Shown: piece by piece, positions 9,301 through 44,109 of the stretch
Layout: the number at the start of each line of letters is the position of its first letter
Position numbering within the stretch: position 1 is the stretch's first letter
From: Alphaproteobacteria bacterium
GTDB lineage: Bacteria > Pseudomonadota > Alphaproteobacteria > CAISOG01
Reading direction: 5' to 3'
Length of the DNA stretch: 64,000 bases
NCBI GenBank assembly: GCA_044345375.1
Contig: JBIJBF010000003.1
Location: 18,089-82,088, forward strand
The notes under the pieces: generated by a model
Told to the model about the DNA's origin: nothing
Databases searched by the model: none
The model's input: only the letters and a program-made list of their open reading frames with translations
Position numbers and translations under genes: made by a program

Positions 9301-9350
9301 AACCACCCCGTCAGGCTTCGCCTGCCACCCCTCTGCAAGAGGGGAATTTT
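9301..9350 (+). repeat. REP-like palindromic intergenic element, copy 1
   Basis: accaccccgtcaggcttcgcctgccacccctctgcaagaggggaatttt contains two short hairpins (caggc-ttc-gcctg and cccctc...gagggg). Near-identical copies occur at 13087, 29357, 29536 and 47632. Confidence 0.8.
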
Positions 9351-9360
9351 ACGGCGTTCG

Positions 9361-10938
9361 CTAAGGAACCAAGTGCACAACCAAAGATTGCCCACTCATT
9401 TCCGCAGGTTTGGCCAGCCCCATGATCGCCAAAATGCTGGGCGCAATATCGGCCAGCCCCGCCGCGCCATCGACAGCCCGTGCAGCCAAGCCAAGGCGAT
9501 GCTGGCCATCCACCAACACCAGCGGTACGGGATTGGTGGTATGCGCGGTGTGGACAACCCCGGTCTCCTCATCCACCATCATTTCCACATTGCCATGATC
9601 AGCGGTGATCAGCAGCACGCCGTTTTGCGCGGCAAGGGCAGATTCCAACTGTCCCACACAACGGTCCACCGCCTCAACCGCTGCCACCGCCGCGGCCAAA
9701 TTGCCGGTATGGCCCACCATGTCGCCATTGGCGTAATTCACCACAATCAGGCTGTAGGTGCCTTGCGCAATCGCGGCCACCAATTTTTCGGTGAGTTCTG
9801 GCGCCGACATTTCGGGCTGCAGATCATAGGTCGCCACCTTTGGCGATGGCACCAGCAACCGATCCTCGCCCTCGCTAGGCTCATCCCGCCCGCCGTTCAT
9901 GAAAAAGGTGACGTGCGGGTATTTTTCGGTCTCGGCGGCGCGCAGTTGCTTTAGCCCTGCGGCGGCGACCACTTCGCCCAAGCCGTTCACAATCGTTTCT
10001 TTCTGGAAAATCACGCTGTACAGCGCGTTCAGCGCGGGATCGCTGTAATATTCCACCAGCCCCGTCACGTCGCTGAATCGCACAGGATTCGGCCGCGCAA
10101 AATCGGTAAAGTTCGGGTCGATCAGGGCGCGCAGGATTTGCCGCACGCGGTCAGAACGGAAATTGCCGATCAGCAGGCCATCGCCAGCTTGGATGCCGGT
10201 ATAGCCATCCAGCACGGTGGGCAGCACAAATTCGTCGGTCAAGCCAGCCTGATAGGCGGCCTCAATCGCAGCCTGAGCATTGCTGGCCACCGCGCCCTGT
10301 GCCGCCACGATCGCCTGATAGGCTTTTTCCACGCGGTCCCAGCGGTTGTCGCGATCCATGCCGTAGTAACGCCCGCCCAGCGTTGCGATCCGCCAGCCCG
10401 TTACACCTTTTAGCTGCTGCTGAAATTGGCCCAGATAGCCAAGGGCGCTTTGCGGCGCGGTGTCGCGGCCATCCAGCTGGGCGTGGACATTCACGAAAAC
10501 GCCAGTGGCGGTGATGATCTTGATCAGGGCGACCAAGTGGTTTTGGTGGCTGTGCACCCCCCCGTCCGACAGCAAGCCGAACAGATGGATGGTGGGATTG
10601 TCGGGATTGGCGGCCTTAACCGCCGCAAGCTGCGCCAGCAGGATGGGGTTGCTGGCCAGGCTGCCGCCGCTAATCGCCTGATCGATGCGGGGCAAATCCT
10701 GATAGATCACCCGCCCGGCGCCAATCGTCATGTGCCCCACCTCAGAATTGCCCATTTGCCCGGCGGGCAGCCCCACATGCAGCTCAGAGGCCTGAATCAG
10801 CCCATGGGGATGGTTGGCGATGATGCGATCCCAATTGGGGGTGTTGGCCTGGGCGATTGCGTTGTTGGCCCCCTCCCTGCGATAGCCCCACCCATCCAGA
10901 ATACACAGCACCACAGGCGTCACGGGGGGCTTAGACAT
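9361..10938 (-). CDS. gpmI: 2,3-bisphosphoglycerate-independent phosphoglycerate mutase
   Basis: 525 aa with N-terminal VLCILDGWG, metal-binding DGRD and ADHGN motifs characteristic of iPGM. Confidence 0.85.
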   Translation of the reverse strand: MSKPPVTPVVLCILDGWGYRREGANNAIAQANTPNWDRIIANHPHGLIQASELHVGLPAGQMGNSEVGHMTIGAGRVIYQDLPRIDQAISGGSLASNPILLAQLAAVKAANPDNPTIHLFGLLSDGGVHSHQNHLVALIKIITATGVFVNVHAQLDGRDTAPQSALGYLGQFQQQLKGVTGWRIATLGGRYYGMDRDNRWDRVEKAYQAIVAAQGAVASNAQAAIEAAYQAGLTDEFVLPTVLDGYTGIQAGDGLLIGNFRSDRVRQILRALIDPNFTDFARPNPVRFSDVTGLVEYYSDPALNALYSVIFQKETIVNGLGEVVAAAGLKQLRAAETEKYPHVTFFMNGGRDEPSEGEDRLLVPSPKVATYDLQPEMSAPELTEKLVAAIAQGTYSLIVVNYANGDMVGHTGNLAAAVAAVEAVDRCVGQLESALAAQNGVLLITADHGNVEMMVDEETGVVHTAHTTNPVPLVLVDGQHRLGLAARAVDGAAGLADIAPSILAIMGLAKPAEMSGQSLVVHLVP

Positions 10939-11177
10939 CGCATCGCATCCATCAATCAGGGTTTTAACTTGCGCCGACGCTAACGCAAAACCGGGCGCTG
11001 TTCAACTGGGTCAACACGCGGTGGCAGCGGTTTGGCGGCCGGTTTTGGCGATGGCTCGGGGTGACGAGCGGTGAAATCTTTAATTTAAAGTCAAAAATTT
11101 GAAACACTATTGACATAAAAACAAAAATTAACAACAATTAAACGTTTATTGTTAACTTTTATTTGTTTAAGGTAATT

Positions 11178-13001
11178 ATGATGAGTTTTAAAGTTCCGAA
11201 TTGGGTTACAAGGGCGGCCTTAAGTTTCGCAACGGTAGCGACGGTTTTCGTTAGTGGTGGTTCAGCGCTTGGGCAGGTGGCGGAGGCACAGCTGAATCCA
11301 GGGGATCTGCCACAGGGTACGACACCAACGTCAGAAATGGTTGAGGTTTCGACGGCGACGGCAGGGAATGCGGCGACGCCAGAGAAGCCTGAGGATGTGA
11401 TCACCGAACAAGCAATCGCAACTTTTGCAACAGATCAAAGGCTGCCAAGTTATGATGTTCAGGTGGTGGATCTGGCGATGACAGAAGTTGCGGCCAAATC
11501 AGTTGTGCAAGAACCCGTGCCGCAAGGGGGGGATATTGGTCAAGAATCAACAGTAATAGAAGAGAGTGGTGCATCCGGTGCAGCCTTATTGGGGGGTGAT
11601 ATTGCGCTTGGTTTGAACACTGGTGCTTCAAACTACAGCCTGCCACCACCAGCATTATCGGCAAAACCGGTTGTTTTGGCGAATAATTCCCAAACAAACA
11701 GTGCGCCCACAGATGTTGTTGAGGGTGTAACTTTTCGTCAACAAGCATTCATAACCCAACCAGAAAATGTTTCCGTAACAAGGTCTCCCGTGGTTACGGG
11801 TTTGGAAACAAAGATAGAGAAGCAGGTTGTTCCAGTATCATACACTGTTACACAACCAGGCGTAATAAGCGAGGTAATAGTCGGTCGGCCGGGTAATTTT
11901 AATGATTTTCCAAAAGCAATACAAGATCTTGCGGGAAAAATTCAGCAAAATGTTAAAAATCCTGATTTAAATACTATAAAAAGATATTTTGAAAACAACA
12001 TTTCGCCGCAAATTCAGATAGATGTTAGTAAGGTTATTGCTGAAGATCCAAGTATAATTAATAAATTAACGCAAGAACTACAATCTAAGCAAACAAAAAT
12101 TATTGTATCAACAGCATCTAAAACAAATTCTATAACAAAATACGAGGAAGTAGATATAATTAATACGATACCTGTGATTGGAGAACTAAAAATAACAAAT
12201 TTAACTACGGAAAAAGATCGAGTTAATTTATCTTGGCAAAACTCAAATATGGTACGATTGGGAGCAGTCGGTTTTGGTCCATATGGGAGTGCTGGGGAAC
12301 GAAATTTTGCTTTTCGCAGTGTGGCCGCAATAGATAATGTTATCTATGACCAAAGGTTTACTGGAATTAATCTTCCAACTGGTGAGCTGGGTGTTGCCGG
12401 ACAGTTGCCCTTAGGCAAGGAAACCACCGCTTTTTGGAGGGTTGGTGCAGATATAGTGGCGCCATTTTCACAAAAAAAGGTAACATCCACGATTCCTTTT
12501 AGCACAGCGCTCTCGATCGAGAATGTCAGCGGGTCTAAGGTTTTTATTGGAATCGAACCTGGATATGCAATTAACCCTAAGCTTACAAGCGGCGCCCAAA
12601 ACTTGACGCAGGCTAAAACGGCCGTTAATGCTGGGTTTGTGTGGAAATTAGGAACCGTTGGTTCTCTTAACGATCTCACCCTCGGAGGATCATTGGGCGA
12701 AATAGGAGAAAGTTTAGGTGCAGGCGGTGGGCGATACATTGAAGTTAATATGAGTGCCGTTTTTGGTGCCGCTGCTTCTGGTTCCTCGGGAAGAACGCCA
12801 TGGGCTAAACGGCAGCAGCAGCAGGCAATACAATTTATACAAGTTAAAATGTTTCCTGAAAACACTTTTGCATATGTTGGGTTTGAGCCTAAACCATTAA
12901 CTGACAAACTAAATACGCCAGAAAAAAAAGATGATATCACAGATATGGAGATGTACCGTATTTACAGCAGTCTGTCTCCTGTGGGCACTGCGAGCAGATA
13001 A
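11178..13001 (+). CDS. Secreted low-complexity surface or outer-membrane protein of unknown function (composition differs from its surroundings)
   Basis: ATG at 11178 preceded by an AAGG ribosome-binding site. Signal-peptide-like N-terminus (SFKVPNWVTRAALSFATVATVFVSGGSALGQVAEA). N-terminal third is rich in A/G/T/V/P. The middle of the gene (about 11880-12350) is strongly AT-rich with an N/K/I-rich translation. C-terminal half is Gly-rich and predicted beta-rich. AT-rich promoter region with TTGACA lies upstream, and a strong terminator follows. Confidence 0.5.
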   Translation: MMSFKVPNWVTRAALSFATVATVFVSGGSALGQVAEAQLNPGDLPQGTTPTSEMVEVSTATAGNAATPEKPEDVITEQAIATFATDQRLPSYDVQVVDLAMTEVAAKSVVQEPVPQGGDIGQESTVIEESGASGAALLGGDIALGLNTGASNYSLPPPALSAKPVVLANNSQTNSAPTDVVEGVTFRQQAFITQPENVSVTRSPVVTGLETKIEKQVVPVSYTVTQPGVISEVIVGRPGNFNDFPKAIQDLAGKIQQNVKNPDLNTIKRYFENNISPQIQIDVSKVIAEDPSIINKLTQELQSKQTKIIVSTASKTNSITKYEEVDIINTIPVIGELKITNLTTEKDRVNLSWQNSNMVRLGAVGFGPYGSAGERNFAFRSVAAIDNVIYDQRFTGINLPTGELGVAGQLPLGKETTAFWRVGADIVAPFSQKKVTSTIPFSTALSIENVSGSKVFIGIEPGYAINPKLTSGAQNLTQAKTAVNAGFVWKLGTVGSLNDLTLGGSLGEIGESLGAGGGRYIEVNMSAVFGAAASGSSGRTPWAKRQQQQAIQFIQVKMFPENTFAYVGFEPKPLTDKLNTPEKKDDITDMEMYRIYSSLSPVGTASR

Positions 13002-13013
13002 CCCCACACCCAA

Positions 13014-13063
13014 CTCCCCCCCCCTGTTCTGCCGTTAAAAGCAGGGCAGGGGGGTTTTTTTAA
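13014..13063 (+). terminator. Rho-independent terminator of the 612-aa gene
   Basis: cccccccctgttctgc-cgttaaaa-gcagggcagggggg GC-rich hairpin followed by a run of seven T. Confidence 0.75.
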
Positions 13064-13086: not shown

Positions 13087-13136
13087 AACCACCCCGTCAG
13101 GCTGCGCCTGCCACCCCTCCGCGGGAGGGGAATAGG
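13087..13136 (+). repeat. REP-like element, copy 2
   Basis: accaccccgtcaggctgcgcctgccacccctccgcgggaggggaataggg, sitting between convergent genes. Confidence 0.8.
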
Positions 13137-13168: not shown

Positions 13169-15592
<2,424 letters not shown>

Positions 15593-15600
15593 GGGGGGCG

Positions 15601-16488
15601 GTGATGAACATAAAACGGCTTACGACAGCAGATGTTGGGATATTGGAACAGTATTTGGCGCCCTATCAGGCGGAATGCATGTATATTTGCAGCAATATCA
15701 AAGCTGGCGGCATGGAATATGCGGGCCAGGATTTTCAAGGCGAGTATTTCGGCTGTTTTCGCGGCAGTTCAGAAGATTTGGATGGCGTTTTGGTGCATTA
15801 TTGGAACGGCAACATCATGATGTATGCGTCTGACACCCAAGTGTTAGAGCAACTGGTTGTGTTCTTCAAAACTTACGCAACCCGTCCCGTGGTCGGGGTT
15901 CTTGGCCCTGATAGGCAAGCAGAATATGTGGTGAATAGCCTTGGTCTGCAACATGCGGCCTTCGCGAGTAATCGGAATGAAGGCTTATACGAACTGGATC
16001 TAAAGAATTTGGGGGCGATCAAGCTGCCGAATGATGTTGCTGTTGTCAGCATGCAAGATGTTTCAATGGATTTGTTGCTGCAGTGGCGTCGTGCCTATGC
16101 CATTGAGGCATTGGGGGCAGATAATGACAGCGCTCTTGAAAAACGGGTTGCCGAAGAGGTTGATCGACAGATTCGTGGGCAGGATTGTTGGGTTTTGCTG
16201 GCGGGGGGAGTTCCCGTATCCCTAAGCGGTTTTAATGCGCGCCTAGCAGAGGTGGTGCAGGTGGGACCTGTGTGGACACCGCCAGAGCACCGCAACCAAG
16301 GCTTTGCCCGGCTGTTGTTGGCTTGGGTGTTGGCTCAAGCAAAAACCAAGGGCACCAAAAAGGCGATATTGTTCACCGATACGCCAGCGGGCATCAAAGC
16401 CTATCGCGCGATAGGCTTTGAAAAGATTGGTGAGTACCGTTTGGCTCTGTTGAAAAAGCCTGTTCATTTGGCTGCCCCCGCCGCCTAA
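15601..16488 (+). CDS. GNAT-family N-acetyltransferase
   Basis: The C-terminal half carries a GNAT core (QGFARLLLAWVLAQAKTKGTKKAILFTD...AYRAIGF). The N-terminal domain is of unknown function. Confidence 0.5.
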   Translation: MMNIKRLTTADVGILEQYLAPYQAECMYICSNIKAGGMEYAGQDFQGEYFGCFRGSSEDLDGVLVHYWNGNIMMYASDTQVLEQLVVFFKTYATRPVVGVLGPDRQAEYVVNSLGLQHAAFASNRNEGLYELDLKNLGAIKLPNDVAVVSMQDVSMDLLLQWRRAYAIEALGADNDSALEKRVAEEVDRQIRGQDCWVLLAGGVPVSLSGFNARLAEVVQVGPVWTPPEHRNQGFARLLLAWVLAQAKTKGTKKAILFTDTPAGIKAYRAIGFEKIGEYRLALLKKPVHLAAPAA

Positions 16489-16536
16489 GCTTTAAGGTAG
16501 GCTTAGGCGGCGGGGGATCTCAGCTAAGAAAGGGCG

Positions 16537-18411
16537 TTAACTCCCCTGGCGACGCAGAAAGGCTGGGATTTCCAGATCCTTTGATGGATTGCCAGACGAA
16601 GGGTTGGGGGCAGCGCCCTGTGGAGAGGCGGCTGCGCCACCGTCATTGGCTCCGCCAAAACTGGGCTCAACCCCTGCTGGTTGCCCTGAACCCGCTGGAT
16701 TACGGCCTAAACGTGGGAAAGCCGCGTTGGTAACCCGCTCAAATAGACTGGGAGAGCGCCCGTGCAGATCATCGTTATAGGCTTGTTCGTCATGGTTGCC
16801 TTGGGCTGGCGCTGCCTGCTGATGGGCAGCCGATGGACGTGCACTGCTGGGCATGATGCGCGGTTCGGTTGCGGCGGGTGGGATAAAGGGATCATCCACC
16901 TGCGGCAAGCCGCGCTTAATCGGCGCAACATTGGCCGCGGCTGGTTGGGGCGCAGGGGATGGCCGTTCAGCGGCTTGTCTGCCCTCAGCATAGCCTTGGT
17001 TTTGTGAGCCTTGATTCTGCTGGCCACCAACGATCTCATCCCACCCCTCATCAGCGGCATGCGTGTAGCCAGATTGTGCGGATTCTCCACGGTTTGCCCC
17101 TTCACGATTGGTCTGGGCCACCCGTTCTGCAAAGCCGCTGACCGCACCAGTGTTGGCGGGTTGACGGGCGCCAAAGTCGGGCTGACGCGGTTCATTGGCT
17201 GGACTAGGCGCTGGCGCAGCAGTCTGCCCATGTGCTTGCTCGGGCGGAAAATCGCCGTAAGCACTGGGGCGATAGCCACGGGAAGAGGCGCCGCTGCTGG
17301 GTTGCTGAGACGCCTGCTGTTGCATTTGCGGTTGAAAATTGGGTTGAATGGGGGCGGCGGCTGCAGCTGGCCTGCGGAATGCTGGCGCAACATTGCCCGA
17401 AAAGTCGGTGTCGCCAATCGCACCTGGGCCACGATGGGTGGCCTCAATACCGGTTGCCACCACCGAAATGCGGATTTTGCCCGCCAGTTTTTCATCAAAG
17501 GTGGCCCCAAAGATGATGTTGGCGTTTGGATCCACCTCCTCCCGAATGCGGTTGGCGGCTTGGTCGGCCTCAAACAGGGTCATATCCAACGCGCCGGAAA
17601 CATGAATCAGGATGCCTTTGGCACCGCGCATCGACACATCATCCAACAGGGGGTTGGAAATCGCCGCCTCGGCCGCGCGAATGGCGCGATCAGCCCCATC
17701 GGCCTCACCCGTGCCCATCATCGCCTTGCCCATCTCGCTCATCACCGTGCGGATGTCGGCAAAGTCAAGATTGATCATGCCAGGCATCATAATCAGATCG
17801 GTAATGCCGCGCACCCCCTGGTACAGCACGTTATCGGCGGTGCGGAACGCATCCATAAAGGTGGTTTGTTCGTCGGCAATGCGAAACAGATTTTGGTTGG
17901 GAACGATGATCAGCGTGTCAACAAACTGCTGCATCTCCTCAATCCCAGCCTCAGCCAGGCGCATCCGGTGGGCGCCCTCAAAATGAAACGGCTTGGTGAC
18001 CACCCCAACGGTTAGAATGCCCTGTTCCCGTGCCGCGCGCGCAATTACGGGGGCAGCGCCGGTGCCGGTTCCGCCGCCCATCCCCGCGGTGATAAAGACC
18101 ATGTCGTAGCCCTGAATCGCCTCCAACACATCCACAATCGCCTCCTCAGCCGCCTCACGCCCAACATCAGGGCGGGCACCAGCGCCAAGACCCTTGGTGC
18201 GTTTGGTTCCCAGCTGCATCCGCAAGGGAGCCTTGGATTGCGACAGGGTTTGCGCGTCGGTGTTGGCCACCACAAAGTCCACCCCCTCAAGATTCAGGCG
18301 GATCATGTTGTCAACGGCGTTGGTACCACCGCCACCCACACCAACCACGGCGAGACGAGGTTTCAGCTCACCTTGAGCGTCAGGAATATTCAGATTCAAT
18401 GACATGGACAC
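16537..18411 (-). CDS. ftsZ: Cell division GTPase FtsZ with a long disordered C-terminal linker
   Basis: GGGTGTG tubulin signature, [13 protein letters not shown] and NTDAQ motifs. About 300 aa of P/Q/A-rich linker before the conserved C-terminal peptide ([11 protein letters not shown]), as is usual in alphaproteobacteria. No ftsA or ftsQ adjacent. Confidence 0.9.
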
Positions 18412-18586: not shown

Positions 18587-20344
18587 TTAGAGGTTGCGAC
18601 TAGCCAATTGGACAGAAGCTTTTTCCCACAGCTTTTCTAAAGTGCTACACGGGTACACATAGAAAGCTTTATGGATCTGAGAGATAGCGCTTGAGCTAGG
18701 CAGATTGCGGCCGTATGGCGCGTCGTTATCAGAATCGTCTAAAACTTTGGTCAGCAAACCTAAGCAGACCATAGCTGGGTTTGCTTTCATGTGTTCGTTT
18801 GTATCGCGGTCTTGGGATACAACAATTTCCCATAAATTTTTATAGTCGATCTGAGAAGATGTGGCATTCACTGGCCATGCATCAGCGAAATTACACCCAA
18901 CTGGAGGAACAAAAGCATCATCCCTAAGTTCCTCGTAAGCCTGCGCAAGCAGCTCACGCAAGGCGGTAAAAACCTCTGGTTCCTTTACCCATGGTATAAG
19001 CGTTTCAAGCGCTGTACAGCGAATGATAAAACATTCTGGCTTATCATTGGGATCATCATTTTGGATGACCTCAATCATTGCGCTGCGAACCTCAGGGTGC
19101 TCTCCGTAAGGTATAAGGGATTTTGCTGCTGCTTCGCGAACCCATAAATCATCGTCAGTTTTTAGGGCTTCAATCAGTGCGCTCCTGGCTTCAGGATACT
19201 CTCCGTAAAATTTAAGGGATTCTGCCGCTGCGTGGCGAACACAGAAATCCGGATCGGTTTGCAGTGTCTCAATCAGTGCGCGGGCAGCCCAACGACTAGG
19301 CGTTTTGGGGCGCGAAAAAGCGTGAGCCGCTTGCGTGCGAAGCCAAAGATTCTTACTGTTCTGCATGATGTCAACAAGTACGCATTCAACCCCCGGATAG
19401 GTGTTGTAACGCGTAAGAGCTTTAATCGCTGCTTCGCGCACCGACCAATCCCGATCCTTCTGCGCCGTGTGCAACAGTTGATCGATAGCTTGGTCATCCT
19501 TATCTCCGTAATAAGCAAGGAATTCAACCGCTTCCTTGCGTTCCCACGTATGATACTCTTCTGCGCCTATCCACGGAGCATAATAAGAACCATTCACTAT
19601 GTTGATCAGTTCCTTGATAGCCTGATCGGTATAATCTTCGAACCGCCTAAGGGATTCAGCCACCTTTTCGCGAATCCATGTTTTCTCCTCCCTATTCCCC
19701 AGTATCTTAAGCAATTCTTGGGCAACCAACTTATCTTGAGGTGGGTAAGGCGCAAGAGCGTCAATTACTGCGTCAACCAACAGCGTCTCCTCACGCTCAT
19801 ATTTCAGTATCTCAAGCAGTGCGGGGGTAACCTCAGGATAATTTCTAAGATTTTCAAGCGATCTAGCCACTTCTAAGCGAATCCAGATTTCCTTATCTTT
19901 GTTTTTTAGTATTTCAAGCCGTTCGCTGAGAGACAGATCATCCAGCTTCAAAGGTTCAGTCGTTGTTAGGTTAATTGGGGGGTAAAGCTTTGTGTATGTA
20001 TAATTCATTGTTTTAAGTAGTTCAGGGATGCTTTGAAGATCATTTTGAAAGTTTGCGAAAAATTTGGCCGCTTCCGTGACAGCCGATGACGGTAACGTAG
20101 GGCCAGACTGTTGGATTAAATCCTCAAGATGCTGTTGGTGTTGATTTCTCGGTTTAGCGGGTTCATTCCTTTGATTGTAAAGTTTTGTATATGTATCATT
20201 GAGTGCTTGAAGCAGTTCAGGGATAATCTGAGGATCATTTTGAATTTTTGCGAAAAATTTGGCTGCTTCCGTGATGGCCCATGGCCGCAACTTAGGATCC
20301 GACTGCTGGATTAAAGCCTCAACCTGTTGGTGTTGATTTTTCAT
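18587..20344 (-). CDS. HEAT/PBS-lyase repeat protein (eukaryote-like repeat protein) with an N-terminal tandem duplication
   Basis: Low-GC gene. Repeated E/PEVRxAAxxALxxYG HEAT-like units, and two N-terminal copies of about 65 aa (NQHQQ..TEAAKFFA..IPELL..YTKLY). I prefer the start at 20344, which has an AGGAAAA ribosome-binding site, over the ATG at 20365. Confidence 0.6.
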   Translation of the reverse strand: MKNQHQQVEALIQQSDPKLRPWAITEAAKFFAKIQNDPQIIPELLQALNDTYTKLYNQRNEPAKPRNQHQQHLEDLIQQSGPTLPSSAVTEAAKFFANFQNDLQSIPELLKTMNYTYTKLYPPINLTTTEPLKLDDLSLSERLEILKNKDKEIWIRLEVARSLENLRNYPEVTPALLEILKYEREETLLVDAVIDALAPYPPQDKLVAQELLKILGNREEKTWIREKVAESLRRFEDYTDQAIKELINIVNGSYYAPWIGAEEYHTWERKEAVEFLAYYGDKDDQAIDQLLHTAQKDRDWSVREAAIKALTRYNTYPGVECVLVDIMQNSKNLWLRTQAAHAFSRPKTPSRWAARALIETLQTDPDFCVRHAAAESLKFYGEYPEARSALIEALKTDDDLWVREAAAKSLIPYGEHPEVRSAMIEVIQNDDPNDKPECFIIRCTALETLIPWVKEPEVFTALRELLAQAYEELRDDAFVPPVGCNFADAWPVNATSSQIDYKNLWEIVVSQDRDTNEHMKANPAMVCLGLLTKVLDDSDNDAPYGRNLPSSSAISQIHKAFYVYPCSTLEKLWEKASVQLASRNL

Positions 20345-20648
20345 ATTTTTTCCTGATTTGTTCATAATGCGTAAACAAACTTATTGATAGATTCAATATA
20401 TTACAATACATAATATTTACATATTTAAGGGGCTTATTTGTTTGGCTTGCTGCCCTATAGAAAACCAACCCTGTGGCTGTTGCGGCGGCGTTGGGCTCGT
20501 GGATAGTCGCTAAAGCGTACGAGCAAAGCGCCTTAGCCGCAGTGTTGCAGACGGGGCGGTAAGAATCTTGCGTAATGTCTTGCCAAAGCAGGTCAAGATG
20601 GGGTAACTGTTAAAAAGTTTCCCTAGTTATTGCATTGGATTTTTTTCT

Positions 20649-21458
20649 ATGCCTTTGATTTTTCGTAATTTTCGCGTCTGTGTTTCCGTTATTTCGTTGA
20701 CCGCTGGTCTGTTGGCCTCAGCCTCCTTGGTGGCGCATGCTGATATTCAGCAGGGTTTGACCGCCTATCAGGCGGGGGACTATGCCGCGGCCATTCAGCA
20801 GTTTGAGCCTTTGGCATCTAAGGGCAATCCATCCGCGCAATACGCGCTGGCGGTGATTTATGTTAAGGGGCAGGGGGTTGCGGCCAATCCTGAACGGGCG
20901 GCGATTTTGTTTGAACAGGCGGCCAGCCAAGGGCACACCCCATCCGCCTTGGCGATTGGGGTGATGTATGCGCGTGGGGTTGGGGTGGCGCCTGACTACG
21001 CCAAGGCTCTGGTGTTTTTGGACAAGGCCGCGGCAACGGGCAGCGCGCAGGCCAAAAGCAATTTGGCCGATCTGTACCGTGAGGGGTTGGGCACAACCCG
21101 TGATTTGCGCAGGGCGGCGACCTTGTACCGTGAGGCGGCTGAGGCGGGGGATGCCAACGCGCAGTACAACTATGGAGTGCTAAGCGCCATTGGGATCGGC
21201 ACCACGCAAAATTGGCCTGAGGCTTACGCGTATTTGAGCCTTGCGGCCTATCAGAATTCGGCTGAGGCCAAGGATGTGTTAACCAGCATCACCGGTTTGA
21301 TCAGCCCTGAGGATTTGGCGGCGGGCAAACAGATGGTTGCCACCAAGAATCCTAAAGCGGCTGAGGCTTTTGCTGAGAAGGCTCCGGTTGCGGCTGAGGA
21401 TTTGGCGGCGGGTGAAAAATCGGCCGATGAAAAACCCGCCAAGAAAAAACGCCATTAG
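20649..21458 (+). CDS. Sel1-repeat (TPR-like) secreted protein
   Basis: Signal peptide, then at least five Sel1-like 36-aa repeats (AQYALAVIYVKGQGV..., ALAIGVMYARGVGV..., KSNLADLYREGLG..., QYNYGVLSAIGIG...), followed by a charged C-terminal tail. Confidence 0.7.
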   Translation: MPLIFRNFRVCVSVISLTAGLLASASLVAHADIQQGLTAYQAGDYAAAIQQFEPLASKGNPSAQYALAVIYVKGQGVAANPERAAILFEQAASQGHTPSALAIGVMYARGVGVAPDYAKALVFLDKAAATGSAQAKSNLADLYREGLGTTRDLRRAATLYREAAEAGDANAQYNYGVLSAIGIGTTQNWPEAYAYLSLAAYQNSAEAKDVLTSITGLISPEDLAAGKQMVATKNPKAAEAFAEKAPVAAEDLAAGEKSADEKPAKKKRH

Positions 21459-22059: not shown

Positions 22060-22755
22060 ATGCTTTTTGGTTTACAGGAAAGAATATTTTCGGTTAAAAA
22101 TAATTTACAGGCGGCGCAGGGATGCCGCCAAAGGGTTAACGATGTTGATAAAGGGGGTGGAATGTCGGGTGTGAATGGTGTGGTTGGTTTTAGGGTAGCG
22201 ACTCCAGATAGCAGGACTCTGTCAGATAGTCAGATTCCGTCAGTTCTGAACCTGGTCTTGACTATTGATTATTTGCGCGCGCGACAAGCACAACAAGCTC
22301 AGCGATCCAGCTCTCAATCGAACACCAGCGCTGCAAAGCTGCAACCAGAGCTGCCGTCGTTTTGTGAGGAAGAACTGGCTGTTTATAATCCGCCCATTAA
22401 GGTCACAGATATTCAAGGGCTTTTTACATTCACGCTGAAAAGAGATCCAACCCCCTTTTTTACCATTGCCAATAACGGATATGCGCCAACGGTAGGGAAA
22501 GCGAAAACGCTGGAATTTTTTGATCAAACGAAAACTCTTCATATGACGATAGTGGAGCAAGTATATCAAGAGCCAGTGGTTCATGGTAACACTATACAAC
22601 TTATTGAGTGCCCAAATGGCACTTTGGTGCCGGAGGAGAGGCTAGCAATTTATACTCTGTCGAGTGGCGACAGAGTAGTTGTTATGAATGCTGATGAATT
22701 GACGGTTCAATTTGTGTCTAGCAAAGATTCAGCACTCGCACCACATCAACGATAA
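22060..22755 (+). CDS. Hypothetical protein, low-GC orphan (true start may be the ATG at 22162)
   Basis: Open frame with AT-rich composition and no recognisable motif. Its 3' end overlaps glyS convergently. Confidence 0.35.
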
Positions 22756-29356: not shown

Positions 29357-29590
29357 TTAATTCCCCTCCCGCGGAGGGGTGGCAGGCGAAGCCTGACGGG
29401 GTGGTTGTTTTAAAAGTTTGTCAGGCGCAGCCTGCCTCCTTTAGATATTTGTCAGGCACAGCCTGACGGGGTGGTTCTTATCTTGGTGGTGTGATGCGCT
29501 GCAGGCAGCACCATGTTTGAATTGTTTGTTACAAGGACCACCCCGCCCTTCGGGCACCCCTCCGCAGGAGGGGAATTTAAGGGGAATTAA
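29357..29590. repeat. Cluster of REP-like elements: one inverted full copy, two partial inverted copies and a variant direct copy
   Basis: 29357-29406 is the reverse complement of the REP consensus. 29418-29440 and 29449-29477 are partial copies. 29536-29577 is a variant in which gcccttcgggc replaces the central hairpin. The cluster lies between the mgtE start and the rnpB 3' end. Confidence 0.75.
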
Positions 29591-29597
29591 GAATTTA

Positions 29598-30028
29598 AGA
29601 TGTCGGTTGGCCTGTAAGCTGGGTTTTGTCTGGGCGGTGAACCGCCCTGGATGGCCATTCATCTTGGGGTGGAATTGCTTCCACACCTCTAGCAACCGAC
29701 CCGCAGAGCCATCGTGGAAACCCGATTGAGTCCCCGAAAAACGGGGGCTCGCGCCCTGCCTATTTGGTTTTGCTCCGGATGGGGTTTACCGCGGCCACGA
29801 TCGGTTGCCCAATCGGCGGTGCGCTCTTACCGCACCTTTTCACCCTTACCGCCCAAGGGTCGAAACCCAAGGACGGCGGTATCGTTTCTGTGGCACTTTC
29901 CCTTGAATTGGCGTTTTCAGCCAACCCCGCTGGGCGTTACCCAGCATCCTGCTTCCATGGAGCCCAGACTTTCCTCTCACCAGCCGAAGCTGAGCAAGCG
30001 GCCATCCAGCCAACCGACGCCGCCATCG
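29598..30028 (-). ncRNA. rnpB: RNase P RNA, bacterial type A
   Basis: The minus strand carries GAGGAAAGUCUGGGCUCC (P4 5' strand), GGUAAGGGUGAAAAGGUGCGGUAAGAGCGCACC (the P10/11-12 consensus), GGUAAACCCCAUCCGGAGCAA and ACAAAACCCAGCUUA (P4 3' strand). P1 is formed by GUCGGUUGGC near 30019 pairing with GCCAACCGAC near 29605. Ends are estimated to within about 5 nt. Confidence 0.9.
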
Positions 30029-31705: not shown

Positions 31706-32179
31706 ATGACCAAAGATAGCAAAATTAAAAAAAATCAAACAAAAACGACTGAAGTTAAGCCAAAGCAAAAAACGCCAAAACCATTGCAGGTTGCAAAAGA
31801 AAATACTGTACCACCTGATCCTGATGTTGACCATGGTGGCAGCCAGCTTAGCCAAGAACTGAACGAATTGTTGGTTGCGGTGGCCAAGGGGCAGCCGTTA
31901 TTGGCGGGTGATAAGATGGGCGAGGTGGCGACGGTGTATCCAACCCTGGACCAACGATTAAAGGTGATGACGATGCTGTTAAAACAACAGGAGCAGGAAA
32001 TGGGCGACATGGTAGAAAAGGATGGCGGTGATGGACGAAAAAAAGCCAAAGCCGCGAAAATCCGCGCGGGCTATAGCGCCGATGAACTTCGCGAACTGCT
32101 CAGCCGCCATTTGGCTGAGCTGTCAACCAAAAAGCCGGCGGGCAAAACTGCTGGCCAGCCTGAGCGATCAGGAGGTTGA
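31706..32179 (+). CDS. Lys-rich small protein, possible small terminase or DNA-binding subunit; first gene of the phage-derived cluster
   Basis: 157 aa. K-rich N-terminus (MTKDSKIKKNQTKTTEVKPKQKTPKP) and a central coiled-coil. The 3' 158 nt overlap the terminase ORF out of frame, and an A7 run sits at the junction. Confidence 0.4.
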   Translation: MTKDSKIKKNQTKTTEVKPKQKTPKPLQVAKENTVPPDPDVDHGGSQLSQELNELLVAVAKGQPLLAGDKMGEVATVYPTLDQRLKVMTMLLKQQEQEMGDMVEKDGGDGRKKAKAAKIRAGYSADELRELLSRHLAELSTKKPAGKTAGQPERSGG

Positions 32180-33395
32180 ACGGCTGTATTACAGCTGGGC
32201 CTTTTGGGCGCGCCCTGAACAGCTGCCGCCGGCCGGTTTGTGGCGGGTGTGGCTGATTCTGGCGGGACGGGGCTGGGGCAAAACCCGAACCGGCGCCGAA
32301 TGGGTTAGCTGGCAGGTGCAAACCGGGCAGGCCAGCCGTATCGCCCTGGTCGCCGCAACGCTGCATGAGGCGCGCAGCGTGATGGTTGAGGGGGCCAGCG
32401 GCTTGTTAAGCTGCAGCCCGCCGTGGAACCGCCCGCGCTATGAGCCATCGAAACGGCTGCTGACCTGGCCCAACGGCGCGGTGGCGCAGTGTTTTGGCGC
32501 TGAGGAGCCGGACAGCCTGCGCGGACCGCAGTTTGATGCGGCCTGGTGCGACGAATTGGCCAAATGGCCCCGTCAGGGTGCCTGGGATCAGCTGATGTTC
32601 GGGCTGCGTTTGGGGCAAAACCCGCAGGTGGTGGCAACGACCACGCCCCAGCCCGTACCGCTGATCGAAAGCCTGGCAAAAAAGGCTGAGGTGGTGGTGA
32701 CAAGGGGCAGAACGCTGGACAACCGTGCCAATCTGGCGGCGGGATTTTTGAGCGAATTGGAGCAAACCTATGCCGGCACTTGGCTGGCTGCGCAGGAGTT
32801 GGAGGGCGAGCTGCTTAGCGATGCGCCAGACACCCTGTGGCCCGCTAAGATTTTGGCGGAGTCGGTGATCGAGCCGGCGTCTGCGCCGCCGATGGTGAAA
32901 ACGCTGCTGGCGATCGACCCTGCCGTAACCAGCCATAGCAGCAGCGACGAAACCGGGCTGGTGGTGGTGGGATTGGGGGAGGATGGGGTGTTTTATGTGC
33001 TGCAAGATGCCAGCGACCGGCTGCGGCCAGAGGTGCTGGTGGAACGGGTGGCGGCGCTGGTTGCCCTGCACAGCATTGGTCAGGTGGTGGTTGAGGTCAA
33101 TCAGGGCGGCGACTGGCTGCTGGAGGCCTTGAATAGTGCAACCTTGGATGCCGTGGTCCAGCCGGTGCGCGCGGTTCAGGACAAATGGACGCGGGCGGAA
33201 CCGGTGGCCATGCTGTATGCGCAGGGTCGGGTGAAGCATGTGGGCCGTCTGCCAACGCTGGAGGCGCAGCTGCGGGCCTGTCGTCGTGGGACTAGGAGCG
33301 GAGGAATGGATCGGGTGGATGCGCTGGTTTGGGCGATTCGCAGTTTGAAACAGGCCAGCGTTAAGCAGCGCGGGTTTGCGGTTCGGGTGGTTTAG
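32022..33395 (+). CDS. Phage terminase large subunit (GTA g2-like TerL)
   Basis: LLASLSDQEVERLYYSWAFWARPEQLPP...WRVWLILAGRGWGKTRTGAEW is the N-terminal signature shared by alphaproteobacterial GTA-type large terminases. An ATPase Walker region and a C-terminal nuclease-like DxD pattern are present. The exact start is uncertain (32022 or 32082). Confidence 0.8.
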   Translation: MAVMDEKKPKPRKSARAIAPMNFANCSAAIWLSCQPKSRRAKLLASLSDQEVERLYYSWAFWARPEQLPPAGLWRVWLILAGRGWGKTRTGAEWVSWQVQTGQASRIALVAATLHEARSVMVEGASGLLSCSPPWNRPRYEPSKRLLTWPNGAVAQCFGAEEPDSLRGPQFDAAWCDELAKWPRQGAWDQLMFGLRLGQNPQVVATTTPQPVPLIESLAKKAEVVVTRGRTLDNRANLAAGFLSELEQTYAGTWLAAQELEGELLSDAPDTLWPAKILAESVIEPASAPPMVKTLLAIDPAVTSHSSSDETGLVVVGLGEDGVFYVLQDASDRLRPEVLVERVAALVALHSIGQVVVEVNQGGDWLLEALNSATLDAVVQPVRAVQDKWTRAEPVAMLYAQGRVKHVGRLPTLEAQLRACRRGTRSGGMDRVDALVWAIRSLKQASVKQRGFAVRVV

Positions 33396-33703
33396 TTGGT
33401 GGATTCATCCAACTCTTGCAACAGCTTGTCTGCATCCTGCCTGCCAAGGATGGTCATGATTTCTGCGGTATCGTCAATCATGCGATAATAGATGCTATGA
33501 GATCCGCAAATTCTGCGCCGATATCCTTGGCGGATATAATCCACAGATGGATAAGAAAGAGGGTGTTTTGCAATTTTTTCAAAAGCATCAAACATTTTTT
33601 GAAGATAATAATCAGCTTTTTGTAATCCGTACTGCACAAAACCCCATTGATAAATTGTTACAAGATCTTCTTCGGCCTGTTTTTTAAGTTTATACGTTCC
33701 CAT
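33392..33703 (-). CDS. parE: Type II toxin ParE/RelE family
   Basis: 103 aa with RelE/ParE-fold features (YRRRICGSHSIYYRMIDD..IMTILGRQD). Low GC. Overlaps the upstream antitoxin gene. Confidence 0.75.
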   Translation of the reverse strand: MGTYKLKKQAEEDLVTIYQWGFVQYGLQKADYYLQKMFDAFEKIAKHPLSYPSVDYIRQGYRRRICGSHSIYYRMIDDTAEIMTILGRQDADKLLQELDESTN

Positions 33704-33944
33704 GAAAACCTAATTTCTTCAACGCCTCGGCCTTAATGTCTTCGGCTGTCATGGTACTAAATTCTCTGTTTTCCGCACTGATCAGTTTTGAACGAATATA
33801 ATCGATCTCGGTCGTTTCCTTTAACCTTGCGTGACGAATCAGAGCGTTAACGACTTCACTTTTGTTGAAATATTCTTGTTTTTCAACCTGCTGTTTAAGC
33901 CAATCATCATTGGGGGTGGTGAGAGAAATGCTTTGTCTTGTCAT
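33690..33944 (-). CDS. parD: Type II antitoxin ParD (RHH/CopG fold)
   Basis: The 84-aa protein starting MTRQSISLTTPNDDWLKQQVEKQEYFNKSEVVNALIRHARLKE is a typical ParD ribbon-helix-helix. AGGAG ribosome-binding site 9 nt upstream. Overlaps the parE start by 14 nt. Confidence 0.75.
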   Translation of the reverse strand: MTRQSISLTTPNDDWLKQQVEKQEYFNKSEVVNALIRHARLKETTEIDYIRSKLISAENREFSTMTAEDIKAEALKKLGFHGNV

Positions 33945-34036
33945 GATCCTGCTCCTGTAAACAACGATATCTGGTTCTATTATGCACCATATACGCACCA
34001 CACACAATATTTATCAACCTTATCAAGGAAAATTCC

Positions 34037-35236
34037 ATGAAAGACTGGATTCAACGACGTTTTTTAAGCCGTTCTGCGGATGCTGTGCCAGCGGCCAAGG
34101 CTAGCAGGGCGGGGCATTTGATGGTTTATGGCCAGCTGAATCAGCCGCGCTGGACACCGCGGCGCTACGACATGCTGGCTGAGGAGGGGTATCGGCGCAA
34201 CGTGGTGGCCTTTCGCTGCATTAAGGAGATTGCGCAGGGGGCGGCGGGGGTTCCCTGGATTTTGTATCAGGGCGATCAGGAGCTGGTTGAGCACCCGTTG
34301 CTGCGGCTGCTGACCAACCCCAACCCCACGCAGGGGCAGGCCAGTTGGGCTGAGATGCTGTACAGCAACCTGCTGATTGCCGGCAATGCCTATATCGAGG
34401 CGGTGGGGGATGGTGACCAGCTGCCGCGCGAGCTTTGGGTGCTGCGCCCCGATCGGATGACGGTGGTGGCGGGGATGTACGGCGTGCCAAAGGCTTATGA
34501 ATACCAGATCAACGGCCAAGTCTACCGCTGGTCGGCGGATGTGGCCAATGGCGCATCCCCCATCCTGCATCTGAAAAGCTTTCATCCGTTGGATGATTGG
34601 TACGGCCTGAGCCCGATGGAGGCGGCGGCCTATGCGATTGATCAGCACAACGAGGCATCCAAATGGAACCAATCGCTGTTGCAAAACGGCGCACGCCCCA
34701 GCGGCGCGCTGGTGGTTCAGATGAGCAAGGATGGGGATGCCAGCCTGAGCAGCGAACAGTTTGATCGGCTGAAAGCGCAGCTGGATGAGCAGTACAGCGG
34801 CCCTGTCAACGCGGGCAGACCGATGCTGTTGGAGGGCGGGTTGCAGTGGGTGGACATGATGATGAACCCCAGGGATTTGGATTACCTGAACGCCCGCTAT
34901 GCCGCTGCGCGTGAGATCGCCCTGGCCTTTGGCTATCCCCCCATGCTGTTGGGGATTCCGGGCGACAACACCTATAACAACCAGCGCGAGGCAAGGGTGG
35001 CGTTGTGGGAGCAAACCATCCTGCCGTTGGTGCACCAGCTGCGCGACGGGCTGAACAACTGGCTGCTGCGGCAGGCTTACGGGGTGGGGGAGGCGCCGTT
35101 GCGGATTGATTACGATCCAGATGCCATCAGCGCCCTGTCGCTGCGCCGTGAACAGCTGTGGGACAAACTGAACAAGGCGGAGTTTCTTAGCACCGATGAG
35201 AAGCGTCAGGCTGCTGGGTATGGGGTGATGGGCTAG
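34037..35236 (+). CDS. Phage portal protein, HK97 family
   Basis: 399 aa with portal-family motif spacing (WILYQGDQELVEHPLLRLL..., LHLKSFHPLDDWYGLSPMEAA..., PMLLGIPGDNTYNN) and the expected position after the terminase. Confidence 0.8.
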   Translation: MKDWIQRRFLSRSADAVPAAKASRAGHLMVYGQLNQPRWTPRRYDMLAEEGYRRNVVAFRCIKEIAQGAAGVPWILYQGDQELVEHPLLRLLTNPNPTQGQASWAEMLYSNLLIAGNAYIEAVGDGDQLPRELWVLRPDRMTVVAGMYGVPKAYEYQINGQVYRWSADVANGASPILHLKSFHPLDDWYGLSPMEAAAYAIDQHNEASKWNQSLLQNGARPSGALVVQMSKDGDASLSSEQFDRLKAQLDEQYSGPVNAGRPMLLEGGLQWVDMMMNPRDLDYLNARYAAAREIALAFGYPPMLLGIPGDNTYNNQREARVALWEQTILPLVHQLRDGLNNWLLRQAYGVGEAPLRIDYDPDAISALSLRREQLWDKLNKAEFLSTDEKRQAAGYGVMG

Positions 35237-35317
35237 CTGGGCTTGGAGTTGTTTGGGTTTTTTGGGGCTTGGTGGAGACAATCTGCCAAGTCTTTTTTTG
35301 TTTCTTAAGGGGATGTT

Positions 35318-35953
35318 GTGATGAGACAAGGATTGGTTTTGCTAACCGCGCCAGCGGTTGAGCCGGCCACGTTGGTTGAGGCGAAAAGCTATTTGGGTGT
35401 GCTGGATCCGGCCGAAGATGCGCTGATCGGCAATTTGATTACCGCTGCCAGACAGGCGGTGGAGAGCTATACGGGGCGGGTGTTGATCACCCAAAGTTGG
35501 CGTCTGACGCTGGACAACTGGCCAGAACCTAAGGTTGGGGTGGGATCGGACTGGTTAAGCCTGCAACAGGATTGGCCAGCGCAGTTTTCTGGGAACGGTG
35601 GACTGGTGGTGGTTGAGTTGCCCAAGGCGCCGCTGCAAAGCGTTAGCGGGGTTCGGGTGTACGACAGCAGCGGGGTGGCCAGCACGGTTGCGCCGTCCGC
35701 CTATGTCGTGGACACCACCACCACGCCAAGCCGGTTGGTGTTTGGCAGCAATATCAGCCTGCCCGCGGTGGGGCAGGTGGCACGCGGCATTGAGATCGAT
35801 TTTGTTGCCGGTTATGGCGCCTCAGCCACCAGCCTGCCAGCCATGCTGCGTCAGGCGGTGTTGGCGGGGGTTAAGGTTTTGTACGAGCGGTCGGGTGGCG
35901 CCATGTCGAGCGCGTTGCGGTTGGCCGAGCTGTTCAAGCTGAAAAGGATATAG
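35318..35953 (+). CDS. gp6-like head-tail connector protein
   Basis: The N-terminal pattern LVEAKSYLGVLDPAEDALIGNLITAARQAVESYTGRVLITQSWRLTLD is diagnostic of the phage gp6-like connector (Phage_connect_1) family. Confidence 0.75.
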   Translation: MMRQGLVLLTAPAVEPATLVEAKSYLGVLDPAEDALIGNLITAARQAVESYTGRVLITQSWRLTLDNWPEPKVGVGSDWLSLQQDWPAQFSGNGGLVVVELPKAPLQSVSGVRVYDSSGVASTVAPSAYVVDTTTTPSRLVFGSNISLPAVGQVARGIEIDFVAGYGASATSLPAMLRQAVLAGVKVLYERSGGAMSSALRLAELFKLKRI

Positions 35954-35956
35954 AGG

Positions 35957-36475
35957 ATGAGCGACACGGTTTTAACCCTTAGCCTTGCGGGCTTTCCCCC
36001 CCTTGGTTTGCCGCGGGTGGAGCAGGAGCTGCGCCCGATTGCCCAACATGCAACCCGCCGCACGGTGAATGGGGCGTTGCAGGACAGCGGTTGGAGCGGC
36101 TGGCAGAAATTTGAGACGGTCATTACCTGCGAGTTGCCCCTGCCGCCTGCTTTGGGCGGGATTTGGCCGGGGATGGCGGTCACGGTTGGTTGCGTGTTGC
36201 CGCTTTGTGAGCAATTAAGCGGCGCAACCAGCAAAACCTTGGCGAAAACGCCGGTGGCGGGCAGCGTTTATGCGGTGGATGGGCTTGGCAACCCGATTGC
36301 GGTGGTCAGCCTTAGCGGCAAGCTGCTGACGCTGGCCAGTTTTAGCGGCACCGCCAGCATCACCTATCGCCCCAGCCTTAGCATGCGGGTGGTGGATTTG
36401 CGTCTGACCACCAAGGAGGCGCCGCGTGGCAGCCGTAATGCCGGCGGTTGGCGGCTGGAATTAAGCGAGATTTAG
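35957..36475 (+). CDS. Hypothetical phage structural protein
   Basis: 172-aa intact ORF tightly packed between the connector and the next structural gene. Host-like GC. No recognisable motif. Confidence 0.4.
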   Translation: MSDTVLTLSLAGFPPLGLPRVEQELRPIAQHATRRTVNGALQDSGWSGWQKFETVITCELPLPPALGGIWPGMAVTVGCVLPLCEQLSGATSKTLAKTPVAGSVYAVDGLGNPIAVVSLSGKLLTLASFSGTASITYRPSLSMRVVDLRLTTKEAPRGSRNAGGWRLELSEI

Positions 36476-36486
36476 GGGGTCAAAAC

Positions 36487-38409: not shown

Positions 38410-38432
38410 CCATCATCCAGAAAAGAAAGCGT

Positions 38433-39131: not shown

Positions 39132-39163
39132 CACTTTTATCAAAACAACAAAGGAATGATGAG

Positions 39164-40387: not shown

Positions 40388-40402
40388 TTGTTAAGTGCAT
40401 AG

Positions 40403-40446
40403 GGGGGGGCTGAGCAGCGTTTTGCTTGGCCCCCTTTTTGTTTTTT
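40403..40446 (+). terminator. Hairpin plus T-tract immediately downstream of the capsid gene
   Basis: GGGGGC-(16-nt loop)-GCCCCC followed by tttttgtttttt. It sits between the capsid stop (40387) and the next gene start (40462). Confidence 0.6.
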
Positions 40447-40461
40447 GGAGGGAGCAAGGCG

Positions 40462-41625: not shown

Positions 41626-41657
41626 CGATTGATTTCATTTTTTTAAGGAGAAAGCCT

Positions 41658-43238: not shown

Positions 43239-43282
43239 TGGGGAAAATTGTTTTTAATATTAACATTTAATTAGTAAATCTC

Positions 43283-43546: not shown

Positions 43547-43580
43547 TTCATTTGGGAGCAGGAATTTCGGGAGGATGGAG

Positions 43581-44069: not shown

Positions 44070-44109
44070 ATTCATGTTCCTTTCATGAAAGTTTTGTTAG
44101 AATAGCCGA

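Follow-up and report, generated by a model that had tools for sequence, protein, structure and literature searches.

The window analyzed here, a 64-kb stretch of contig JBIJBF010000003.1, contains an intact open reading frame (ORF) on the forward strand at 11163..13001. This gene, termed X in the following, lies between gpmI and atpD, both encoded on the reverse strand, and was found in two very different allele types in genomes that are otherwise nearly identical. The organism is an uncultured, deep-branching alphaproteobacterium that carries TrcR, an RcGTA-like cluster and a bamA-lpx cluster; the closest GpmI among 185,579 species genomes is 58% identical.

The likelier start codon of X is the ATG at 11178, with the sequence AAGG (11169-11172) located five bases upstream, resulting in a protein of 607 amino acids (aa); the TTG at 11163 would yield 612 aa. 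Public collections (NCBI, JGI, ENA, Logan) contain the exact 607-aa product starting at 11178 and not the 612-aa version, and TTG 11163 is probably not the true start. The original prediction, made from the sequence of this stretch, had described a gene of 612 aa: the ORF itself was confirmed, but its length is more likely 607 aa. At the base composition of X, 607 stop-free codons would arise by chance with a probability of ~7e-18; X is a genuine gene. Its GC content is 43.9% overall and 34.2% at third codon positions (GC3), compared to a GC3 of 69-74% in gpmI, atpD, lpxA and radC. This is the lowest GC3 of the 46 ORFs in the window (z = -4.3), the other 45 having ~67%. Within the central stretch (11838-12257) the GC content drops to 30.5% (GC3 17.9%, 200-nt minimum 27.5%), with a window mean of 56.6%, so that the previously stated contrast of 33% to 60% GC is roughly right. 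The features of the locus are the following:

10880..10999, no strand: upstream substitution peak (6.8% compared to 0-0.8% further out), reaching across the 5' end of gpmI into the first part of the intergenic region
11076..11177, forward strand: AT-rich promoter and 5' untranslated region (5'UTR), from a consensus scan and near-invariance across alleles
11178..13001, forward strand: coding sequence (CDS) of X, 607 aa, mature protein ~61 kDa, isoelectric point (pI) 4.9, no Cys, no His
11178..11273, forward strand: predicted Sec-type signal peptide, aa 1-32, n-h-c architecture read from the sequence
11183..11290, forward strand: mosaic patch 1 in type A, alternative signal peptide, proportion of synonymous differences (pS) 0.49
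11207..12995, forward strand: hypervariable cassette, no blastn alignment between type A and type B
11274..11777, forward strand: N-terminal low-complexity segment, aa 33-200, V/A/T/P/E/Q-rich, from composition
11491..11610, forward strand: mosaic patch 2 in type A, aa 105-144, pS 0.26
11778..12242, forward strand: central segment, aa 201-355, from composition and a low-confidence AlphaFold2 model
12243..12887, forward strand: Gly-rich, apparently beta-rich C-terminal domain, aa 356-570, from alignment and alternation profile
12888..12998, forward strand: polar C-terminal tail, aa 571-607, ending in ...SPVGTASR without a terminal aromatic residue
13002..13245, no strand: downstream substitution peak (10% compared to ~1% further out), reaching across terminator and REP-like element into the 3' end of atpD
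13019..13061, forward strand: intrinsic terminator of X, 14-bp stem (13019-13054), 8-nt loop, T7 run
13087..13133, forward strand: REP-like (repetitive extragenic palindromic) element, with other copies at 9301-9347 and 29360-29387 (reverse strand)

Every contig reaching both neighbours (the window, L083, L001, L082, L086 and L090) places X between gpmI and atpD, and in the shorter contigs L084, L085, L087, L088 and L089 the gene lies beside the single neighbour that is reached. The alleles fall into two types, type A (607 aa, the type of the window) and type B (587 aa). The type B contigs L082, L086 and L090 have the same gene order as the window, cdsA-dxr-rseP-bamA-skp-lpxD-fabZ-lpxA, gpmI (reverse), X (forward) and atpD (reverse), and in L086 and L090 radC and ftsZ (reverse) come next after atpD. 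Their DNA (n=3) is 98.9-99.2% identical to the window upstream of X and 96.5-97% downstream. The encoded proteins are likewise nearly identical (BamA 99.9%, LpxA 100%, RseP 100%, AtpD 99.7%), whereas X is only 26-29% identical. In three independent type B contigs the blastn alignment breaks at position 11206 of the window (approximately codon 10) and resumes at 12996, the last codon, showing that the divergence is confined to the coding sequence.

Nevertheless, the two types are homologous: they align collinearly over their full length, with conserved Gly, Pro and aromatic columns. Between them X has a pS of 0.60 and a proportion of nonsynonymous differences (pN) of 0.49, compared to a pS of 0.023 and a pN of 0.004 in gpmI, and a pS of 0.080 and a pN of 0.004 in atpD. 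The saturated pS indicates that the alleles are far older than the genomes carrying them, and not the product of fast evolution since the strains split. For the same reason the data show old or imported alleles, not a measured ratio of nonsynonymous to synonymous substitution rates (dN/dS) above 1. Type B X is similarly AT-rich (GC 45%, GC3 37%) within a locus with a GC3 of 60-77%. Two antisense ORFs of the window allele (12344..12940 and 11401..11748) were considered as genes and rejected, since antisense ORFs in the type B allele reach at most 77 aa.

Within each type little variation was seen. Type B X has only two variable sites across contigs dated 2011 and 2018 and one undated contig; the type A variants differ outside two patches by five nonsynonymous and no synonymous changes. 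In P0001, P0004, P0006 and the window these two patches, one replacing the signal peptide and one spanning aa 105-144, occur in independent combinations; elsewhere the gene is 99-100% identical. They are rich in synonymous changes and indels, as is typical of imports from diverged alleles, and contain all 12 substitution types without an adenine bias. Judging from these sequences, the type A patches must derive from at least one further, unsampled allele.

Recombination also left its pattern at the borders of the cassette, where divergence was measured in the ~250 bp adjoining on each side. Substitutions peak directly at both borders, and the upstream peak patch (10880..10999) is common to L001, L088, L086 and L087. 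In the 758 bp upstream, the window (type A) and L090 (type B) show five differences, and L001/L088 (type A) and L086/L087 (type B) four to six; the window and L001, both type A, differ at 27 positions. Flank haplotypes are thus decoupled from allele type. Neither boundary, tandem or template-like repeats nor invertible-segment repeats were found around X in the 64-kb window, and no integrase, transposase, tRNA, direct or inverted repeat is located at the edges of X. A separate observation concerns the ~180 bp of promoter and 5'UTR (11000-11182, compared over 10939-11182), which are 99-100% identical between the window and L001/L088, while in the same contigs the adjacent regions 10900-10999 and 11183-11290 differ from the window by 25-50%. 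This conserved island suggests either an unusually strong constraint on a regulatory region shared by gpmI and X or two separate recombination events.

To place the alleles in time, sampling dates were taken from the sample table of PMC10871203 (TYMEFLIES metagenomes). All eight datable JGI/Logan contigs come from the TYMEFLIES metagenomes of Lake Mendota, 2003-2018. Type A was sampled on 2003-07-11, on 2003-07-23 (with the alternative signal peptide) and on 2012-06-29 (double mosaic); in addition, two samples from 2006, one of them dated 2006-08-01, are identical to the window. Type B was sampled on 2011-11-30 and 2018-10-05, and a further type B sample (3300042924) is undated. The ENA assembly ERZ27272083 (L083, undated) carries the exact X allele of the window. 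The dated type A and type B samples show that both allele classes were present in one lake population over ~15 years.

Outside this organism no relative of X was detected. An exhaustive phmmer search over 1.84 billion representative proteins returned exactly two clusters, type A (five members, 94-100% identical, including the X of the window) and type B (four members, 587 aa, 27-29% identical to X, E = 1e-16). Three word-indexed searches of 5.8 billion clusters, including seeds from type B and from a joint profile, gave no further relatives. Searches of both alleles against Pfam, NCBIfam, PHROGs and PADLOC yielded no family match but only sub-threshold noise (IL1, Organ_specific, PHROG E 0.18). 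Pfam found nothing for four domain fragments, and no Pfam or NCBIfam family was reached at E <= 10 with whole proteins or fragments. PDB sequence profiles, searched with the full length and the C-terminal domain, gave only noise (cortexillin E = 1; NADPH dehydrogenase E = 0.003 over 45 residues). Neither tblastn against phages and plasmids nor scanning contig collections (viral, genome and metagenome) for peptide patterns gave a match. The metagenome contig collection, searched with an exact 35-mer of the conserved 5'UTR, had no match either; it evidently lacks these samples. The best 80 gpmI loci of more distant organisms (<= 58% identical GpmI) contain no relative of X, and neither a paralogue nor a partial copy is present within the 64-kb window or related loci. 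X therefore appears to represent a new orphan family without detectable relatives outside one uncultured lake alphaproteobacterium. This agrees with the original prediction, which could name no homology: sequence, profile and structure-database searches were all negative, and homology to a core housekeeping outer-membrane protein, which would have spoken against that prediction, was looked for in the homology searches and not found.

The N-terminus of X has the features of a signal peptide: K5 and R12 are basic, aa 13-26 form a hydrophobic core, and cleavage is predicted at ALG|Q, with VNA|Q at the aligned position of type B. This architecture is kept in three N-terminal variants that are only ~50% identical, and at the level of signal-peptide architecture the earlier claim of a secreted protein holds. 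A second hydrophobic helix is not present in X: the maximum Kyte-Doolittle mean over 19 residues (1.59) lies within the signal peptide. Both alleles encode proteins with a pI of 4.9-5.0, no Cys and a mature mass of 59-61 kDa. The order of segments described before, with a signal peptide, an A/G/T/V/P-rich part, an AT-rich centre encoding N/K/I-rich sequence and a Gly-rich C-terminal half, matches the composition: aa 41-220 are rich in V/A/T/P/G/S/E, aa 221-360 in I/N/T/V/K, and aa 361-607 contain 13% Gly. The segment aa 33-200 is probably extended or disordered, and AlphaFold2 gave no structure for it, with a predicted local distance difference test score (pLDDT) of 22-28. The modelled centre consists of a long beta-hairpin, four short helices (aa 246-302) and a second long beta-hairpin; only aa 240-305 reach a pLDDT of 62-75.

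Both alleles have a C-terminal domain that is rich in Gly and beta-patterned, and the Gly/Pro motifs GAVGF, IEPG, G.V.KL and SLG are common to the two types. In X, aa 356-570 show ~10-12 alternating hydrophobic and polar stretches by a heuristic, compatible with ~10-12 strands; AlphaFold2 stays below a pLDDT of 50 there. The proteins end in ...SPVGTASR (type A) and ...NQNPLGR (type B) and not in the beta-signal with its terminal aromatic residue. An internal FAYVGF motif is located ~40 aa before the C-terminus in type A only. Profile searches for an autotransporter beta-domain found no family at E <= 10, including with the isolated C-terminal domains of both alleles, and known S-layer anchoring or secretion modules (SLH, RTX/type I C-terminal signal) had no Pfam or NCBIfam match at the same threshold. 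AlphaFold2 of the complete protein reached a pLDDT of 29.9 with the single sequence and 31.1 with a three-sequence alignment, so no usable model was obtained; the model contains no barrel but is unreliable. Foldseek of this model against the PDB gave no match at E <= 0.001, and the matches listed were judged meaningless. Because of the low pLDDT (31), fold, location and function of X are putative.

In contrast to the coding sequence, the signals around it are shared. Hardly any change was seen among the alleles in promoter, 5'UTR, ribosome-binding site and terminator; in promoter and 5'UTR the type A, mosaic type A and type B sequences show a single mismatch, while the sequence on either side diverges. 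The promoter-like site consists of a -35 element TTGACA (11110-11115), a 17-nt spacer and a -10 element AACAAT (11133-11138), matching the consensus at 10/12 positions. The upstream region contains six promoter-like sites compared to 3.4 +/- 1.7 in shuffled sequences, which is not above expectation, and support for the site comes from its position and conservation, not from statistics. The predicted AT-rich promoter of X's own is accordingly present as an AT-rich region with a 10/12 site, but the number of such sites does not exceed chance. A CtrA box was rejected for the promoter, since TTAA-N7-TTAA occurs nowhere in the 64-kb window, and an Rfam scan of the window for an RNA element at X returned RNase P only. 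The other flanking features proposed before were all recovered. The terminator hairpin is strong (-29.3 kcal/mol, z = -4.2, with its 14-bp stem and T7 run). The REP-like element, an intergenic palindrome of the form ...GCCTGCCACCCCTCC-GCG-GGAGGGGAAT, has three copies in the window with none expected. And atpD stands alone between X and radC, both of opposite strand.

Further observations were made on these flanking elements. The REP-like copy at 9320 carries changes on both stem arms (CCCCTCTGCAAGAGGGG), consistent with selection for the hairpin. The atpD gene, encoding the F1 ATPase beta subunit (13169-14680, reverse strand), is adjoined by neither atpG nor atpC, and its product has a Lys/Pro/Ala/Thr-rich N-terminal extension of ~25 aa; gene callers differ on its length (503 or 556 aa).

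We propose that X encodes an exported, surface-exposed envelope protein at a single-gene replacement hypervariable locus under frequency-dependent selection. We hold this composite reading with moderate confidence, and its parts differ in strength. The hypervariable locus as such is well documented, export of X is likely, and the protein is probably surface-exposed. The protein traits (signal peptide, acidic pI, no Cys, beta-patterned C-terminal domain) fit an envelope or surface protein, and substitution peaks at the borders have been described for replacement flexible genomic islands (PMC4033161), whose typical products are exposed structures. As to its form, X is a candidate for a major surface or S-layer-like protein, or for a protein anchored in the outer membrane via its Gly-rich beta C-terminal domain. 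According to this model, the fixed site between gpmI and atpD, with its conserved promoter, 5'UTR and terminator, would hold very old hyperdivergent alleles: type A, type B and one or more unsampled alleles from which the patches came. By homologous recombination, both within the gene and in its conserved flanks, whole alleles or segments would move among genomes that are otherwise 97-99% identical. Several alleles would then be retained in the lake for years by negative frequency-dependent selection, exerted by phages, grazers or other enemies that recognise the surface. Phages and grazers are presumed as the selective agent, and any reason given for the AT-richness is presumptive as well.

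Several points weigh against this proposal. Localisation and abundance of X are putative, and the AlphaFold2 models (pLDDT 30-31) support neither a barrel nor an S-layer-like fold. The C-terminus is devoid of the terminal aromatic residue typical of outer-membrane barrels. With a GC3 of 34-37%, X is far removed from the codons preferred in the genome, which speaks against a native gene with very high expression. Only two allele classes on ~10 contigs are available as a basis for frequency dynamics. Because pS is saturated, pN/pS is uninformative, and ancient balanced alleles are inseparable from alleles imported out of sister lineages that were not sampled. The region contains no more promoter-like sites than expected by chance.

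The variability pattern would look the same if X were secreted as an effector or adhesin and evolved in a host-symbiont arms race with a eukaryotic or cyanobacterial partner. The signal peptide and the disordered N-terminal half fit such a protein, and low-GC genes for HEAT-repeat and Sel1-repeat proteins, which are common in host-associated bacteria, lie 5-8 kb away. However, the window contains no secretion-system genes or effector motifs, X has no adhesin, immunoglobulin-like or repeat domain and no internal repeats, and the Gly-rich beta C-terminal domain suggests association with a membrane or lattice over a soluble effector. We consider this explanation unlikely.

A bolder version of the surface-protein proposal is that X founds an undescribed family of major surface proteins (S-layer-like or anchored in the outer membrane) whose alleles are an ancient balanced polymorphism of one freshwater species, with the AT-richness itself (GC3 34-37% in both alleles, compared to ~67-70% in the genome) being maintained, by MucR-like silencer binding or a locus-specific mutational bias, and not a foreign leftover. 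This would be a rather doubtful extension at present. The low GC content of both old alleles could possibly reflect a low-GC allele pool shared by unsampled relatives, selection for AT-rich DNA (for example for silencer binding) or a local mutational bias.

The original prediction had offered horizontal acquisition as an alternative, with X as a low-GC gene of foreign origin that was newly inserted between gpmI and atpD. The GC3 of 34% compared to ~67% (z = -4.3), which makes X the most deviant gene of the window, and the lack of homologues in relatives would be expected for such a gene. But all sampled strains have a homologous gene at exactly this site, and no empty junction is found among them. 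Promoter, 5'UTR, the first ~9 codons, the last codon and the terminator are common to the strains. Mobility genes, a tRNA, boundary repeats and scars are absent, and no donor-like homologue was found in phages, plasmids, viral contigs, 185,579 species genomes and 1.84 billion proteins. In addition, the two allele classes are collinear homologues that are both equally AT-rich. Of the features of a horizontally acquired islet only the atypical composition is seen, and a recent acquisition is very improbable. The other reading offered there, a surface antigen under diversifying selection, is the better of the two. Diversifying selection is borne out as extreme allelic divergence within a species that is limited to the CDS, not as a measured dN/dS above 1; a surface antigen, adhesin or effector would be a putative role of X.

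Programmed variation by a diversity-generating retroelement, by gene conversion from silent cassettes or by phase variation would explain why changes are sharply confined to the CDS and occur in discrete patches inside type A, and X contains a G7 run (~11526-11532) and an A8 run (~12925-12932) in its CDS. Against it, all 12 substitution types occur and are not adenine-specific, partial copies of X are absent from the rest of the 64-kb window and from related loci, and the window contains no template-like or invertible repeats. The patches, with their numerous synonymous changes and indels, look like imports from diverged alleles, and samples of different years hardly differ within a type, so this mechanism is highly improbable. 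Hardly credible is a decaying, non-functional ORF drifting under relaxed constraint, which would account for a pN/pS of ~0.8 between types, for the 5:0 ratio of nonsynonymous to synonymous changes in type A outside the patches and for the lack of a known domain, since pN/pS is unreliable at saturated pS and the 5:0 ratio is not significant (~p = 0.25, an estimate), both alleles are full-length ORFs despite their AT-rich composition (chance ~7e-18) and align collinearly with Gly, Pro and aromatic columns in common, three variants retain the signal-peptide design, promoter and terminator have been preserved, and type B is invariant but for two sites (2011, 2018 and one undated contig).

If the proposal is true, the locus marks the main enemy-facing surface molecule of a deep-branching lake alphaproteobacterium. 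It would also be an unusually clean case of allele-level balancing selection: a single gene with CDS-exact breakpoints and a conserved promoter, whose alleles are 27% identical while the background is 97-99% identical. A public time series covers two decades of this population, so that its allele frequencies, its recombination and any oscillations could be measured without cultivation. If the alleles are an ancient balanced polymorphism, the 471 dated metagenomes would make X a testable case of allele-level 'kill-the-winner' dynamics. As X is a complete orphan, its structure, once solved or predicted with confidence, would contribute a new family of envelope proteins. If X is not surface-exposed, it is an ordinary strain-variable hypothetical protein.

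Other parts of the window also vary between strains or carry unusual genes. A GNAT acetyltransferase gene (15601-16488, GC3 54%; region 15600-16532) is present in the window and L083 and missing from the type B contigs L086 and L090, where radC is directly followed by ftsZ, indicating a strain-specific insertion or deletion 2.6 kb from X. The C-terminal linker of FtsZ (3' part of ftsZ, 16533-17532, reverse strand) is 8-18% divergent between the window and L086 and contains indels, compared to 0-0.4% in the adjacent sequence, and FtsZ is 624, 634 or 637 aa long in different strains. The HEAT-repeat gene (18587-20365, reverse strand, GC3 43%) contains an internal 169-bp repeat (81% identical) and a patch of 13.5% divergence at 19533-20032; it is followed by the Sel1-repeat gene (20649-21458, forward strand), the product of which has a signal-peptide-like N-terminus. 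HEAT-repeat and Sel1-repeat proteins are both common in host-associated bacteria. An ORF of 231 aa without a Pfam match (22060-22755, forward strand, GC3 40%) is the second most deviant in the window. The sole Rfam family at gathering score in the window is the class A RNase P RNA at 29599-30017 (reverse strand, 268 bits). The RcGTA-like head-tail cluster extends from 32022 to 45864 with genes for the large terminase (32022-33395), portal (34037-35236) and capsid (39164-40387); its ORFs at 36448-38409 (653 aa, between portal and capsid), 40426-41625, 41658-43238 and 44110-45864 have no Pfam match.

Hypervariable loci of this kind are already known, whereas the protein family is new. Among known systems, outer-membrane proteins with a C-terminal barrel, including the autotransporters (type Va), resemble X in the order of parts, with a signal peptide, an extended variable N-terminal part, short helices and a Gly-rich beta domain of ~220 aa. 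Unlike them, X has no family match at E <= 10 and carries a 37-aa polar tail that ends in Arg and not in an aromatic residue. S-layer proteins share with X the acidic pI, the lack of Cys and a size within the 40-200 kDa class, a composition that is matched but not specific, as well as a signal peptide, very low conservation between strains, an own promoter and a strong terminator. The Aeromonas S-layer proteins VapA/AhsA are exported via Sec and a type II system. X differs from S-layer proteins in having neither SLH nor another known anchoring domain, and its low GC3 is atypical for a very highly expressed gene.

Rickettsiales possess hypervariable outer-membrane antigens, namely WSP of Wolbachia and Msp2/OMP-1 (Surface_Ag_2) of Anaplasma. 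Like these, X is an alphaproteobacterial gene with recombination-driven mosaic hypervariability between close strains; unlike these, it has no Pfam-level similarity, no pseudogene cassettes were seen, and the whole mature protein varies, not only loops. A target of a diversity-generating retroelement was also considered and rejected, since the 64-kb window contains no variable-region repeat and the substitutions are not A-specific.

The remaining comparison is with the replacement flexible genomic islands of aquatic prokaryotes, for example those for the O-chain, flagellum glycosylation, the S-layer and giant proteins (Lopez-Perez, Martin-Cuadrado and Rodriguez-Valera 2014, PMC4033161). They typically encode exposed structures, and the diversity of the islands is attributed to phage recognition (PMC4033161); slpA of Clostridioides difficile is a variable S-layer cassette according to Dingle et al. 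2013, as cited in PMC4033161. X differs from these islands in being a single gene with breakpoints at the ends of the CDS and not a multi-gene cluster, in having alleles that are still homologous (27%) and mosaic within the gene, and in that its surface exposure is predicted. As in the islands, X occupies one chromosomal position in all strains, its content, presumably of equivalent function in the different strains, is not alignable at the DNA level although the strains have more than 96% average nucleotide identity elsewhere, and single-nucleotide polymorphisms peak at the borders, with exchange apparently proceeding by homologous recombination in the conserved borders and without hallmarks of mobile elements.

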